Origin: Candidatus Bathyarchaeia archaeon
GTDB lineage: Archaea; Thermoproteota; Bathyarchaeia; Bathyarchaeales; Bathycorpusculaceae
Reading direction: 5' to 3'
Assembly: GCA_038882955.1 (NCBI GenBank)
Contig: JAVZNC010000001.1
Location: forward strand, 256,001 to 320,000
DNA length: 64,000 nt
The translations under genes were made by a program, and so were the position numbers. This document shows, piece by piece, positions 22,988 through 62,826 of the stretch (position 1 is the first letter of the stretch; each line of letters opens with the position of its first letter). A model generated the notes under the pieces. The model ran no database searches and was not told the DNA's origin. It saw only the letters and a program-made list of their open reading frames with translations.

Positions 22988-24292
22988 TCAACTCTTTATT
23001 TTCTCTACTAGTTCTTCGATTTTCACGTTGTTCTGCTCCCTTTTCGCCAAGTTTCGCAAGACAACAGCACCTTCTTTTAGCTCTCTCTCACCGACTATAA
23101 TGGCATAATCCATCTTGCGCCTATCCGCATCCTCGAGAGCCTTACTTATCTTTCGCCCCATAACCTCAACTTCAACAGGTATAGCAGCGCCACGAAGTTT
23201 ATTGGCGATTTTTAGGGCTTCAGCCTTCAGCCCTTCCTTTGTCGGAATGACAATAACCTTTTTCGCTTCTGCAGCATCCACTTTTGCATTTTGCTTTTGC
23301 ATAGCCAACATCATGCGGTCTAACCCATGGGCTATTCCGACTGCGGGTGTGGGTTCGCCGCCAAAAAGTTCTATCAGTCTGTCATATCTGCCGCCCCCAG
23401 CCAAGGCTATGTCAAGTTCTGGAACGTTAACTTCGAAGATTGCGCCAGTATAATACTCAAGTCCCCTTGCAAAGCCAGCATCTATAGTTATTGCGATTTT
23501 GCTTTCGCTTTCCATGACAAGTTTCAAAATTTCCTTTAGGTTTTCTACAGCTTCCAAGGCTTTATCATAACCTTTAATGCATTCTTGCATTTTCCCAACC
23601 ATTTCGAAGGCGTTGCTTCCTTTGAGTTCAACAAGCCTTTGAACGGTTTCAACGCATTTTCTTGGAACCCCGATTTCTTCAACGCGCTTGACAGCTTCTG
23701 AATACAGTTTCTTGTCCATCAACTGCATAACTTCGTTCACGTTTTTCTCTTCAATGTTTTCTTGGCTGAATATTCCTCTCAAAACGCCAACATGTCCAAC
23801 CTTAAAAGCATAATTTTTAAGCCCAACACTGCGCATAAAATCGTTTGTTAACATGATTATTTCTGCGTCTGCTTCTGGCTTACTTGAGCCCATCAACTCA
23901 AAGTTTGACTGCCAAAACTCTCTGTATCTGCCCATCTGCGGCTCATCATAGCGGTATAGACTGCCAACACAGAAAAGTCTGAATGGACGCGGCTCATTTC
24001 GCAGAGTTGTCGCCACAAGCCTAGCAACGGAAGGCGTGAATTCTGGTCTTAGAGCCACCATGCGTCCGCCAAGGTCTTTGAAGGCGTACATTCGCAAGCG
24101 AACTTCCTCGCCAGCCTTAGCTGACAAAAGTTCGTATGATTCCACAACTGGCGTTATTATTTCCTTGTAACCGTAGAGTTCAGCTATTCTGCGCGCTTTG
24201 CCTTCGATGTAACGCATCATTTTGGCTTCTTCTGGCATGAAGTCGCGCATTCCACGAACAGTTTGGAAGGATGACATTTCAGCCACATCCAC
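22988..24292 (-). CDS. hisS: Histidine-tRNA ligase
   Basis: RGMRD, LRPEFT, RYDEPQ.GRYREFWQ, RGLEYYTG, GGGRYD. Confidence 0.97.
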   Translation of the reverse strand: MDVAEMSSFQTVRGMRDFMPEEAKMMRYIEGKARRIAELYGYKEIITPVVESYELLSAKAGEEVRLRMYAFKDLGGRMVALRPEFTPSVARLVATTLRNEPRPFRLFCVGSLYRYDEPQMGRYREFWQSNFELMGSSKPEADAEIIMLTNDFMRSVGLKNYAFKVGHVGVLRGIFSQENIEEKNVNEVMQLMDKKLYSEAVKRVEEIGVPRKCVETVQRLVELKGSNAFEMVGKMQECIKGYDKALEAVENLKEILKLVMESESKIAITIDAGFARGLEYYTGAIFEVNVPELDIALAGGGRYDRLIELFGGEPTPAVGIAHGLDRMMLAMQKQNAKVDAAEAKKVIVIPTKEGLKAEALKIANKLRGAAIPVEVEVMGRKISKALEDADRRKMDYAIIVGERELKEGAVVLRNLAKREQNNVKIEELVEKIKS

Positions 24293-24295
24293 AAT

Positions 24296-24853
24296 TTATG
24301 GTAGGGTTAATTGTGAAAGGGAATAGTAAACAGTTTCTCCTCTACGGTTCATAACGGCCAGAACGAGTTCTTTCTTGAGGCTCTGGCATTGCCTCATGAT
24401 GCGAGTTAAATCCTCAACTGAAATGGGCTTGCCTTCTTGAATGTTTAAAATTAGGTATTTGGCAGTGTCCTTACCATACTCGCCTCTTTCATAAACACGA
24501 AAATCAACACCCAAACCGAAGCCCTCGCGAACAACATAGCCCCTACTTCTCAAGTCACGATACACCAAGTATTTTGCCCACGCATTTTCATCAACACGTT
24601 CATAAAACTGCAAAAGCCTCTTAAAGTCAACAGCCTTGCCACTTTCATCTTCAACTTCGAGTGAACCTTTCTCCAGAAGATAAAGCGCCTCGTAAAAGGC
24701 TAGGATAAGCGACTTATCTTCAGCCACGCCGTAACCTTTCGAGGAAAGCTCGTCGGCGCTTTGCTTATCTGAAATTTTGACGCCTTCCTCCACTAGCAAA
24801 CCCTTAACTTTTGCTTCAGCCTTTTCGACGATTTTCTCCTTTTCCACAGTCAT
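24296..24853 (-). CDS. endA: tRNA-splicing endonuclease subunit, probably structural (beta)
   Basis: LAFYEALYL, VYRDLRSRGY, DFRVY motifs; catalytic Tyr and His positions read GFGLG and KDTAKY. Confidence 0.85.
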   Translation of the reverse strand: MTVEKEKIVEKAEAKVKGLLVEEGVKISDKQSADELSSKGYGVAEDKSLILAFYEALYLLEKGSLEVEDESGKAVDFKRLLQFYERVDENAWAKYLVYRDLRSRGYVVREGFGLGVDFRVYERGEYGKDTAKYLILNIQEGKPISVEDLTRIMRQCQSLKKELVLAVMNRRGETVYYSLSQLTLP

Positions 24854-45144: not shown

Positions 45145-48138
45145 CTATTTTGGACTTTTCCTGAATAAGAGTTCTTGATATTCCGAGTTTACTTTTCCAT
45201 GTTTTTCGTTGATGACTCTGCTGATTTTATGCCAGTCTTGGGATATTTTTGGCCATAGCTCGCTGGACATTAACTGCTTTGTCACGTATTCTTTTAATGG
45301 TTTTTCCCGTTTGATTGTTTTTCGGTGCCACTCGAAGCTTATGAGCCCAGCGCGTTTCAAGTATTGAATTGTGTGACCTACTTGGTGGTGATCGAGTGGG
45401 TATTCCATGCTTCTTTCTAAATCTTCTAGGAGCGAGTCAACTGTTATTTCGTCTTCTGGGCGTAGACAGATGATGGCTATGACATCTTGGATGAGCCTCG
45501 CAGTCTTGGTGGGATATATCCCAATCTTCTTGGGCGGGATGAGGATTTGTTCTAGGCGGTAGCCATACCTCCTGTAAAACCAGCTTTTTATGATTTCAGC
45601 CAGTGCCACATAGGCGCCGAGAATTGCGGCTAATGCTATAAAGAAGGTTGCTGGAGGCTCTACAAATTTGAAAATTTCTCCTAATGGCGTGTAGGGAAGT
45701 ATCAGCGCGAATGTTATTATTGCTATGCTGCTGAAAAGCAAAAGTCGGCTAGGCTTGCTTTTCCAGAAAGGCGACTTCTTTGTTCTAATGGCAAAGATTA
45801 CAAGAGTCTGCGAGGTTAGGGATTCAATGAACCAAGCAGTTTGGAATAGTGGCTCATAAGCGTTAAAGATGAAAAGCATTATAAAGAATGTTATAAAGTC
45901 GAAGAGTGAGCTGACAGGTCCAAGACACACCATAAACCGTCTAATGAAGTGTATGTCCCATCTTTTAGGCTTCTCAATGTATTCTTGGTCAACTTCGTCT
46001 GCGGGTATCGTTGATTGGGAAAAGTCGTAGAGAAGGTTGTTAAGCAGTATTTGTATGGGCAGCATTGGCAGAAAAGGCAGAAACAACGATGCTCCAGCCA
46101 CGCTGAACATGTTTCCAAAGTTTGAGCTCACACCCATCATGATGTACTTCATGGTGTTGCCGAAGGTTTTTCTGCCCTCCAAAACTCCGTCGTGAAGCAC
46201 CGTCAAATCGTTCTGCAAAAGAATTATGTCTGCGGATTCCTTCGCAACGTCAACGGCGTTTTCGACAGATACACCGACATCCGCCGTTTTCAGTGAAGGC
46301 GCATCATTTATTCCATCGCCCAAGAATCCAACAACATGCCCATTGTTTTTTAAAGCGTTTATTATTCTGTCTTTCTGAGCTGGTGTAACCCTGCAGAACA
46401 CGTTAGCTTCTTCGACAACTCTTGCAAGGGCGTCATCATGCAGCTGGGCAATTTCGCTTCCAGTGACAACCCCTTTTATGTCGAAGCCTAAGTGCTCGCA
46501 AACCTTCCTCGTTACCAGCTCATTGTCGCCTGTAAGAATTTTCAACTCTATGCTGGCATTTTTCAGAAGCTGTAAAGCTTCTCTCGCCGTTTCTTTTGGT
46601 GGGTCAAGGAAAGCTATGAAGCCAAAAAACACCATTTCTGTTTCGTCGCCCGCCGTGTAGACGGGTTTATCCTCTCTTAAACGCTTGTAGGCTACGGCTA
46701 AAACCCGGTAGCCCTCAGCGCTAAGCTCAATATATTTTTGCTCGATATTTCGGCGCACTTCGTCCGTTATGTCGGCTACAACCTCTCCAACTTCGTAATA
46801 AGAGCAGACCTTAGCAACCTCTTCAGGAGCACCTTTAGTGATCATAAACCGTTGATTTTGATGTTCAACAACTATGGAGAGGCGTTTACGGACAAAATCA
46901 AAGGGAACCTCATCAACTTTCCTATAATCCTTAACATCCACATCTCTAAAACTCAGTATAGCCTCGTCCAAGGGGTTTTTAAGTCCAGTCTGGTAATAGC
47001 TATTTAGGTAGGAGTAAAGCAGAACCTTATCGCTTTCGTTGCCGTCGAGATCCACGTGTAGAACAAGCTTTATCCTGTTTTCCGTCAAAGTTCCAGTTTT
47101 GTCCGTGCACAGAACGTCCATGCTTCCAAAATTTTGTATGGCTGCTAGGCGTTTCACGATGACGCCCTTCTTAGCCATCGACACTGCTCCTTTAGAGAGG
47201 TTCACCGAAATTATCATTGGAAGAAGCTCCGGTGTCAAGCCCACAGCTAAAGCCACAGCGAAAAGAAGTGAATCAAGCACGCTTCGCATGTAAAGGGCGT
47301 TAATGAAAAACACGAATATGACAAGCAGAAAAGTTACTTGCATTATCATGTAACCAAAACTTCGAATACCCCTCTGGAACTCCGTTTCCGGCTCCCTTGC
47401 AACGAGGCTCTTCGCAATTTTCCCATACTCTGTATGGCTGCCAGTTTTCACGACAACGGCGGTTGCTGTCCCGCTCACAACAGAAGTTCCCATAAAAAGA
47501 TAGTTGCTCCACTCCGTTATTGACGGGTCATAAGATTTCAGCGGCAAGCCAGTCTTCTCAACGGGAAAAGATTCACCAGTCAACGCAGACTGGTTCACGA
47601 ACAGGTCTTTTGCACTTATAACTCGGGCGTCTGCAGGCACAATGTCGCCTGCTGAAAGAAATATTATGTCTCCAGGAACGATCTCCGCAAGCCTAACCTC
47701 TTTTTTAATCCCATCCCTCAAAACGGTGGCTGTTGTCGCCACCCTCTGCTTCAGCATTTCAGCCGCTCTTTCAGCCTTATATTCTTGATAAAAGTCTAAG
47801 ACCACGCTGAACGTCACTATAACAAATATGATAGCTGTGTTAGCAACCTCGCCAAAAAAGCCGGAAATCAGTCCAGCGATAAGAAGAATTATTATCAATG
47901 GACTTTTGAAGTGGGAGAGGAAATCGATGATGACTGCTCTCCTCTTTTTTCTAACAAGCTCATTATAGCCAAAAAATTCAAGACGCCTTTCCACATCCTC
48001 GGATGAAAGCCCATCCGATGAAGTCTTTAAGCGCAAAAGAAGCTCCTCAACAGGCAAAGTTAAAACTTCTTCAGCGCTCGGCATAGCCCAGCTTAAACCT
48101 TCGCCAACACTTGACTCCTCCAAATTCTTAACCACCAT
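45145..48138 (-). CDS. mgtA: Mg2+-transporting P-type ATPase with C-terminal extension
   Basis: TGES, PELLP, DKTGTLT, GDGINDAP, SSNFGN, NLLYD, FQTAWFIES. Confidence 0.93.
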   Translation of the reverse strand: MVVKNLEESSVGEGLSWAMPSAEEVLTLPVEELLLRLKTSSDGLSSEDVERRLEFFGYNELVRKKRRAVIIDFLSHFKSPLIIILLIAGLISGFFGEVANTAIIFVIVTFSVVLDFYQEYKAERAAEMLKQRVATTATVLRDGIKKEVRLAEIVPGDIIFLSAGDIVPADARVISAKDLFVNQSALTGESFPVEKTGLPLKSYDPSITEWSNYLFMGTSVVSGTATAVVVKTGSHTEYGKIAKSLVAREPETEFQRGIRSFGYMIMQVTFLLVIFVFFINALYMRSVLDSLLFAVALAVGLTPELLPMIISVNLSKGAVSMAKKGVIVKRLAAIQNFGSMDVLCTDKTGTLTENRIKLVLHVDLDGNESDKVLLYSYLNSYYQTGLKNPLDEAILSFRDVDVKDYRKVDEVPFDFVRKRLSIVVEHQNQRFMITKGAPEEVAKVCSYYEVGEVVADITDEVRRNIEQKYIELSAEGYRVLAVAYKRLREDKPVYTAGDETEMVFFGFIAFLDPPKETAREALQLLKNASIELKILTGDNELVTRKVCEHLGFDIKGVVTGSEIAQLHDDALARVVEEANVFCRVTPAQKDRIINALKNNGHVVGFLGDGINDAPSLKTADVGVSVENAVDVAKESADIILLQNDLTVLHDGVLEGRKTFGNTMKYIMMGVSSNFGNMFSVAGASLFLPFLPMLPIQILLNNLLYDFSQSTIPADEVDQEYIEKPKRWDIHFIRRFMVCLGPVSSLFDFITFFIMLFIFNAYEPLFQTAWFIESLTSQTLVIFAIRTKKSPFWKSKPSRLLLFSSIAIITFALILPYTPLGEIFKFVEPPATFFIALAAILGAYVALAEIIKSWFYRRYGYRLEQILIPPKKIGIYPTKTARLIQDVIAIICLRPEDEITVDSLLEDLERSMEYPLDHHQVGHTIQYLKRAGLISFEWHRKTIKREKPLKEYVTKQLMSSELWPKISQDWHKISRVINEKHGKVNSEYQELLFRKSPK

Positions 48139-62043: not shown

Positions 62044-62753
62044 TTACATCCGGTGTCCATAGCGTCCAGTGAGTGGAACGAAGGCTACTCCGCCGAGGTT
62101 TTCCTCCTTCAGTTTTCCATCTGCAATTTTTGTGACTTTTATTAGGTTTTGGAATAGGTGGATGCTTCCAACGGGGATTAGCATTATTCCGTTTGGCTTT
62201 AGCTGCTCAATTAGTGGTTGTGGAATTGAAGGAGCAGCCGCGGTTACTAGGATTCTGTCATAGGGTGCCTTTTCTGGGTACCCTAACGAGCCATCTGCAC
62301 AGATTATTGTTACGCGGTCGCCGTATCCAGCGTTCATGATGTTTTTTCTTGCAAATTCAGCTAGTCCTTGAATGATTTCAACGGTGTAGACGTGGCCCCA
62401 CTCGCTTCGTGGCGCGTTGCTTGGCGCAACTGTTTCGGCTATTGTTGCTGCGTGCCACCCGCTTCCAGCGCCTATTTCAAGCACTTTTTGTCCTACTTCC
62501 AATTGTAGGGCTTCATTCATTATTGAAACCATGTTTCGCCTAGCTCAGCCTTTGCGCTGAGGCTATGTGGCGCGGATATTGTCTGCCCAAAACCAATTGG
62601 AAGAGGCGTGTCCACGGCGCTGTAGGACTGCATGTTTTCTGGGAGAAACTTTGCCCTTGGAAGCATTTGCATTGCCCTTATCACGTTTGGCGAGCGGAGG
62701 ATTCCCTCCCTTTTTAGACTTTCGATAAGCCTTTTCCAGTCTTCATCAACCAA
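62044..62753 (-). CDS. pcm: Protein-L-isoaspartate O-methyltransferase in two exons (62567-62753 and 62044-62534), 225 aa after splicing
   Basis: Exon 1 ends GQTISAP(H); exon 2 reads MVSIMNEAL..VLEIGAGSGW..APYDRILVTAA..FVPL; removing 32 nt restores the frame. Confidence 0.9.
62535..62566 (-). other. Candidate BHB-type mRNA intron (32 nt)
   Basis: CGCC/GGCG 4-bp helix with 3-nt bulges ACA and AAA; internal hairpin TAGC-C-TCAGC-GCAAAG-GCTGA-GCTA. Confidence 0.85.
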
Positions 62754-62826
62754 ATTTTGGCACCAAATCTAATAGGCGCAGAGCACGCTTTTAACATATT
62801 TGCCTAAAGTAAATTCGAAGTGAAAC

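Follow-up and report, generated by a model that had tools for sequence, protein, structure and literature searches.

A bulge-helix-bulge intron very probably interrupts the protein repair gene pcm in Bathyarchaeia

The pcm gene of Candidatus Bathyarchaeia archaeon (contig JAVZNC010000001.1) very probably carries a genuine archaeal-type bulge-helix-bulge (BHB) intron, and comparison across genomes indicates that this intron is ancient. The gene lies on the minus strand of the window, by which we mean the whole stretch of 64,000 nucleotides that was analysed and whose numbering is used here. In the primary transcript, the exon 1 Ala-Pro codons (CGCC) form a central helix with GGCG, which lies close to the 3′ end of the insert. 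In the proposed mechanism, a two-subunit splicing endonuclease (EndA) of the host would cut after the second base of each bulge, and RtcB would join the exons and probably circularise the 32-nt intron. The joined mRNA would read Pro-His-Met across the junction and encode the full 225-aa Pcm, whereas the unspliced RNA would yield only a 77-aa fragment.

Exon 1 spans 62567..62753; it opens with a TTG start codon at 62753, contains 62 codons of which the last is Pro, and ends with C 62567, the first base of a split His codon. The 32-nt intron occupies 62535..62566, an assignment based on the fold, same-site inserts in relatives, covariation and RNAalifold, and our reading of the sequence agrees to the base with the insert originally predicted in minus-strand pcm. 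It consists of the third base of the first bulge, a hairpin (62565-62541), GGCG (62540-62537) and the first two bases of the second bulge. In exon 2 (62044..62534), AC completes the His codon, and the frame continues from a Met codon (ATG, 62532-62530) to the stop codon (62046-62044), giving 162 aa plus stop. The list of open reading frames contains the downstream frame from this ATG with 162 aa and the unspliced upstream frame (62753..62520) with 77 aa, the length at which the original prediction had placed its stop. In profile searches, PF01135 (cut-off 20.3) matched exon 1 over positions 4-59 (47 bits, E 3.4e-12) and exon 2 over positions 61-208 (147.9 bits, E 4.5e-43). The NCBIfam profiles leave one position open between the exons (NF010549 63|65, TIGR00080 63|65, NF001453 66|68); NF010549 positions 65-214 were matched by exon 2, and TIGR00080, whose cut-off is 159.05, scored the exons separately at 44.7 and 139.2. 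The open residue is the His of the SAPHM motif, with its codon split C|AC. Because a single profile position is open, removal of the 32 nt would yield a Pcm of 62 + His + 162 = 225 aa, and the abutting Pfam and NCBIfam positions bear out the earlier claim that excision restores ISAPHMV in a product of this length.

Both the BHB arrangement and the pair of cut sites given in the original prediction stood up to examination. The central helix H has four base pairs, formed by CGCC (62572-62569) and GGCG (62540-62537); its exon-side strand, 62569..62572 on the minus strand, lies within the Ala-Pro codons of the SAPH motif. Bulges of 3 nt stand on opposite strands, ACA at 62568-62566 and AAA at 62536-62534, and the inner hairpin has nine pairs and one bulged C in the centroid fold and the sequence. 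The AAA that follows GGCG is unpaired in the centroid structure and is paired into a small exon 2 hairpin in the minimum free energy structure. Each bulge is located 3′ of its own strand of helix H, so that a cut after the second bulge base reproduces the canonical arrangement of tRNA introns. On the outer side, the G preceding the helix has a possible pairing partner in the final C of the His codon. This G-C pair, next to the second bulge, is conserved in 114 of 115 copies, and the next position is the wobble base of a Ser codon and is unconstrained. Since the outer helix amounts to one G-C pair, the 3′ site is a relaxed BHB, short of a full hBHBh′, and its cleavage would need an enzyme of broad specificity. 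The 76-nt fold had a z score of -1.59, with 11 of 200 shuffled sequences folding equally well, and loose BHB shapes gave 4678 candidates in this 1.54-Mb genome. The lone copy is therefore not beyond chance, and the case rests on comparative evidence. Rfam gave no family match at E <= 1 in 62300-62800.

Searching 61 related genomes with exon 2 identified 57 pcm loci from 56 genomes. A same-site insert of 28-46 nt is present in 45 of these loci, and the other 12 have an uninterrupted CAC or CAT. Scanning one genome per species (185,579 species) with an intron pattern matched at least 120 stretches; among the 80 matches listed, 77 have the same-site pcm insert and the remaining 3 are chance matches in bacteria. 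The titles of the 77 insert-bearing records listed read Bathyarchaeota or Bathyarchaeia, with a few Bathyarchaeales, 'Thermoproteota archaeon' and 'uncultured archaeon'. The titles of relatives' records thereby bear out the affiliation with Bathyarchaeia given in the original prediction. The insert was also present in 10 of 20 further pcm loci that were fetched, and ten pcm genes of other orders were all uninterrupted. A non-redundant set of 137 pcm loci contained 115 with the intron, a proportion that is not a frequency because 77 of the 115 had been picked by the intron pattern; these 77 contribute to the diversity of the set.

We then considered 401 genomes sampled evenly from the class, of which 340 have pcm at E <= 1e-25. 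A looser intron pattern gave 98 matches in this sample, or about 93 after five presumed false ones were dropped (family f24, 79-nt, judged by eye to have no helix complementarity). Four pattern-negative genomes were fetched on account of their short open frames, and all four carry the intron, having been missed because Ser was encoded by AGY or because exon 2 read ATGATA; the figure of about 93 is thus an underestimate. By this pattern, the counts are 24/25, 3/3, 11/18 and 40/103 for families f11, f10, f7 and f1, respectively, and, in another order, 7/7 for family f20 and 1/16 for family f26. The f20 introns are longer and very G+C-rich; in L185-L189, the five loci that were fetched, they measure 31-57 nt. 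Some of their inner stems are extended or branched, with the 4-bp helix and the bulges unchanged. Separately, in genus g17, which belongs to the family of the present genome, pcm was found at E <= 1e-25 in only 8 of 40 sampled genomes, most of them >90% complete, and pcm itself seems to have been largely lost from this genus.

The relatives also made it possible to examine whether the structure is maintained by compensatory changes. In a MAFFT alignment of 45 junctions from the relatives' pcm loci, 100% of the helix H cells are paired, and the second pair is GC in 40 sequences, AU in 3 and GU in 2. Double changes occur in all 8 inner-helix pairs and in 9 of 12 pairs overall. The doubly changed cells number 107, compared with 29.1 in shuffles, and 0 of 500 shuffles reached the observed value, a statistic whose significance is overstated by kinship among the sequences. 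Paired cells amount to 91.5%, against 22-46% when the partners were slid by 1-3 columns, and RNAalifold, run without structure input, gave the same succession of helix, 3-nt bulge and helix. Same-site inserts with compensatory BHB changes, which had been put forward as a check on the intron, were thus observed in relatives, in the 45 of 57 loci, the CACC/GGTG pairing and the covarying hairpin.

The features conserved over the 115 introns are those of a BHB. All four central pairs and both 3-nt bulges are present in 114 copies, and in the exception (L139) the boundary had been placed one base off. Helix H is CGCC/GGCG in 102 copies, CACC/GGTG in 10 and CGCC/GGTG in 2. The first bulge is ACA in 88, TCT in 17, ACT in 6 and TCA in 4, and the second follows A-N-A in 114. 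At least three uninterrupted inner pairs are found in 113 of the 115, commonly 6 or 9 (27 and 26 copies, respectively). The introns are 28-57 nt long and fall into phase classes of 37, 55 and 23, with a stop codon inside every one of the 23 in-frame introns. When the EndA cut rule was applied in silico, the frame and the CAC His codon were restored in 114 of 114 copies.

The His codon is CAC in all 114 copies with the intron and never CAT, and in genes without the intron it is CAC in 15 and CAT in 7. For Ala, intron-bearing genes use GCG in 105 and GCA in 10 cases, and intron-less genes use GCA in 10, GCG in 6, GCT in 3 and GCC in 3; all 10 GCA copies in the former are matched by GGTG in the insert. 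For Pro, the corresponding counts are CCA 94 and CCT 21 with the intron, and CCC 6, CCT 6, CCG 5 and CCA 2 without it. These codon counts indicate that the exon codons within the motif are constrained only in intron-bearing genes. In 14 pairs of intron-bearing genes, dN/dS was 0.03-0.18 in both pcm exons, values that point to strong purifying selection on both exons.

To place the intron in the history of the gene, a quick maximum-likelihood tree was built from 77 Pcm proteins (225 columns), those of intron-bearing genes being translated after in silico splicing. All 55 intron-bearing genes fell into a single clade (SH-aLRT 96) together with 13 intron-less ones; nine intron-less genes of other orders lay outside it. 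At least 8 changes of intron state are required over the whole tree, and at least 3 by branches with good support. The simplest history, and the probable one, is a single gain in a bathyarchaeial ancestor followed by several clean losses, the number of losses being beyond the reach of a 225-column gene tree. That the invariant SAPH motif supplies one strand of the recognition helix may explain why the intron has persisted.

Other explanations for the insert were weighed against these data. EndA might cut the pcm BHB and leave the exons mostly unjoined, so that the element would reduce pcm expression as a switch for decay or regulation, in the manner of yeast TSEN on some mRNAs; TSEN-initiated mRNA decay in yeast is described in a 2023 review (PMC10485636). 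We regard this as very unlikely, as the strong purifying selection on both exons and the restoration of frame and residue in every copy need joined exons. Moreover, the exon 2 query returned no second pcm-level match in this genome (the other two matches were at E 2.8e-5 and 9.5e-5, with 33% identity), so that without ligation the cell would lack Pcm.

A split gene, in which the insert is an intergenic spacer and polypeptides of 77 aa and 162 aa (from ATG 62532) assemble without RNA splicing, is also highly improbable. It can draw on the purine-rich GGCGA (GGTGA in 12 copies) 3 nt before the exon 2 ATG, which we take to resemble a ribosome-binding site, and on the fact that gene callers do call the 162-aa pcm frame. 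In such a gene, however, neither piece would contain the invariant His of SAPHM, and yet the flanking C...AC that encodes it is kept in 114 of 114 copies. Where exon 1 pairs with the 3′ end of the insert, both strands change together (CACC/GGTG in 10 copies), a covariation that would be needless in a spacer. Furthermore, the bulges always have 3 nt and the helix always 4 bp although the insert varies from 28 to 57 nt, and the tail of the upstream frame is not conserved.

For translational bypass of, or frameshifting over, the insert speaks its stable hairpin within a coding gap, which is reminiscent of phage T4 gene 60. This reading is scarcely credible, since matching take-off and landing codons are absent, the 5′ junction differs in its bases between copies (CAT, CAC, CAG, CTC, CTT), the insert lengths occupy all three phases, and the conserved features are those of a BHB. 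Finally, a frame-breaking 32-nt insert in one genome can look like a decaying pseudogene or a misassembly, an equally negligible prospect here and one contradicted by the same-site insert in >100 independently assembled genomes (including records titled chromosomes and one single amplified genome, SAG), by the dN/dS values and by the covarying structure.

A spliced pcm intron would call for a processing machinery, and its components are encoded in this genome. An EndA paralogue of 185 aa, with tRNA_int_endo_N and tRNA_int_endo profile matches, lies at 24296..24853 on the minus strand of the window. The genome contains two PF01974 paralogues, each with both domains and sharing 29% identity, the second being on contig C6 (region 24229-24486). 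Pairwise alignment places Thr in the window paralogue where the C6 paralogue has His, at what we take to be the position of the catalytic His. The C6 protein is closest to the PDB tRNA-splicing endonuclease chains 2cv8_A, 3p1z_B and 2zyz_B, presumably crenarchaeal catalytic subunits, and the window protein is closest to 5x89 and 1a79. In a splicing endonuclease of two subunits, the window EndA would probably be the partner that lacks catalytic activity. The genome also encodes RtcB (591.7 bits).

The cut rule itself was controlled on tRNA genes of the same genome. Applied to tRNA-Lys(UUU) and tRNA-His(GUG), it gave intron-free tRNAs that ARAGORN recognised; in both, the helix comprises loop positions 32-35, and the bulge comprises positions 36 and 37 and the first intron base. 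This control was confined to the two genes, the intron calls of ARAGORN being too unreliable for the full set. ARAGORN predicted introns in 14 of the 52 tRNAs. Two tRNA-Trp(CCA) genes (C3:142463-142633 and C10:1721-1892) have introns of ~90 nt, one of which contains a clean BHB-like element (C3:142497-142522) that the mRNA scan described below picked up.

A second message of this genome shows the same kind of interruption. The CBF5 profile gave two abutting matches on contig C6, outside the window, separated by a 22-nt BHB intron at 46848-46869 on the minus strand. Its helix is CTCT/AGAG, its bulges are AGG and AAA, its inner hairpin is GGCG...CGCC, and its outer helix, judged by eye, has 3-4 bp. 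Excision by the same cut rule rebuilds the Asp in the GHGGTL-D-PNVTG motif. Same-site inserts of 18-32 nt were found in 25 of 30 cbf5 loci of relatives, with CTCT/AGAG replaced by CCCT/AGGG in several. The presence of a cbf5 BHB intron in the same genomes indicates that the lineage tolerates such introns in messages. As far as the consulted part of a 2009 survey goes (PMC2738675), the cbf5 intron was found only in Desulfurococcales and Sulfolobales, and Thermoproteales, Cenarchaeum, Nitrosopumilus and Korarchaeum were scored without it; the present intron falls outside both of those crenarchaeal orders. In one relative (G044, C66:1837-4200), cbf5 appears as two matches (query 1-104 and 95-252) ~1.6 kb apart in a single 873-aa frame, a gap that might represent an inserted in-frame element, for instance an intein.

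We also scanned the genome for BHB motifs whose excision would rescue an open frame, as had been suggested in the original prediction. Scans that demanded an unbroken run of 5 inner pairs and an exon 1 of 70 codons missed pcm. The design that recovered pcm gave 25 matches against 17-23 in phase-shifted controls, and the design that recovered both pcm and cbf5 gave 105 against 79-102. A coding-potential filter on the latter retained 7 matches, compared with 3-5 in controls; the five other than pcm and cbf5 have A/T-rich helices and, by eye, resemble ordinary gene junctions. The scan thus recovered pcm and cbf5 and gave no clear excess of further genes: beyond these two, this insensitive genome-wide search found no detectable excess of BHB introns over the phase-shifted controls.

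The original prediction had expected automated annotation to call pcm a pseudogene or two genes. The pseudogene part did not hold: annotation mostly calls the 162-aa exon 2 frame and names it Pcm. Proteins of 162 aa starting at the exon 2 Met make up 105 of the best 120 database relatives of exon 2, and such entries are named protein-L-isoaspartate O-methyltransferase by JGI and NCBI. Proteins of 225 aa account for 10 of these best 120, all at 84-87% identity. A full-length protein at >= 95% identity, which might represent the product of a spliced transcript, was absent from the best 120, the nearest twin being a 185-aa fragment. As gene calls, the 162-aa Pcm entries are truncated: the N-terminal third of the protein is missing from them, as is the His at the junction. 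The practical consequence for annotation is that most public Pcm entries of the lineage are exon 2-only calls.

The intron had also been thought to tie protein repair to splicing activity, a proposal for which we found no support; the pcm intron looks like a constitutive, tolerated one. A wider reading would be that Bathyarchaeia splice a few messages with EndA and RtcB, pcm and cbf5 at the least, that this splicing gates their translation, that Pcm output follows the activity of the RNA-processing and repair machinery, and that more spliced mRNAs lie behind truncated gene calls. We consider this doubtful. If such a gate did operate, ribosomes that read the message before the BHB was cut would yield truncated peptides only.

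The literature searched, a scope outside which most subscription journals fall, contained no report of an intron in pcm, in keeping with the earlier statement that none was known. Within its accessible text, the 2023 review (PMC10485636) names just two spliced archaeal mRNAs, cbf5 and HVO_1309, and expects more. In the available portion of a 2026 review of non-canonical splicing (PMC13149111), IRE1/RtcB splicing of HAC1/XBP1 mRNA is named, cbf5 goes unmentioned, and archaea appear under tRNA splicing only. The pcm gene would be the third spliced protein-coding gene of archaea, beside cbf5 and HVO_1309, such genes being extremely rare. Bathyarchaeia are represented here only by metagenome-assembled genome (MAG) and SAG records. 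The >100 natural variants of one relaxed BHB offer a series for testing how tolerant a two-subunit endonuclease is in an mRNA context.

Among known systems, the cbf5 intron of Desulfurococcales and Sulfolobales is similar to that of pcm in having hosts with a hetero-oligomeric endonuclease, a relaxed motif and a variable interior, according to the parts of the sources consulted (PMC2738675; Yoshinari 2006 via PMC10485636). The history proposed for it, one gain followed by lineage-specific clean losses, is also similar, and cleavage is placed between the second and third bulge residues in the same text (PMC2738675). The differences are that pcm is a protein repair gene rather than a gene for an RNA-modifying enzyme, that its lineage is Bathyarchaeia, and that its central helix is built from codons of an invariant catalytic-site motif. 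Splicing of cbf5 was shown by cDNA and enzyme assays (PMC2738675), whereas that of pcm is deduced from sequence. HVO_1309 of Haloferax volcanii likewise is an mRNA with a BHB, and the portions consulted report that it is cut by the archaeal splicing endonuclease and appears spliced in RNA-seq (PMC7714728, PMC10485636). In these portions it is a case from one species, a euryarchaeon whose enzyme is of the alpha2 type, whereas the pcm intron interrupts the coding frame and is conserved throughout a lineage at the level of a class.

The pcm intron shares its geometry and cut rule with archaeal pre-tRNA introns, and the second bulge is AAA in tRNA-Lys, pcm and cbf5 alike. It differs from them in that the host RNA is translated and in that the outer helix, formed in pre-tRNAs by the anticodon stem, is reduced to one G-C pair. 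A more distant parallel is the IRE1/RtcB system of eukaryotes, which is independent of the spliceosome: an endonuclease reads RNA structure, an RtcB-type ligase joins the exons, and the reading frame changes. Splicing of pcm would resemble that of HAC1/XBP1 in being spliceosome-independent and in relying on a structure-recognising endonuclease and an RtcB-type ligase. The endonuclease and the motif are unrelated, however, and the IRE1 system is a regulated stress switch.
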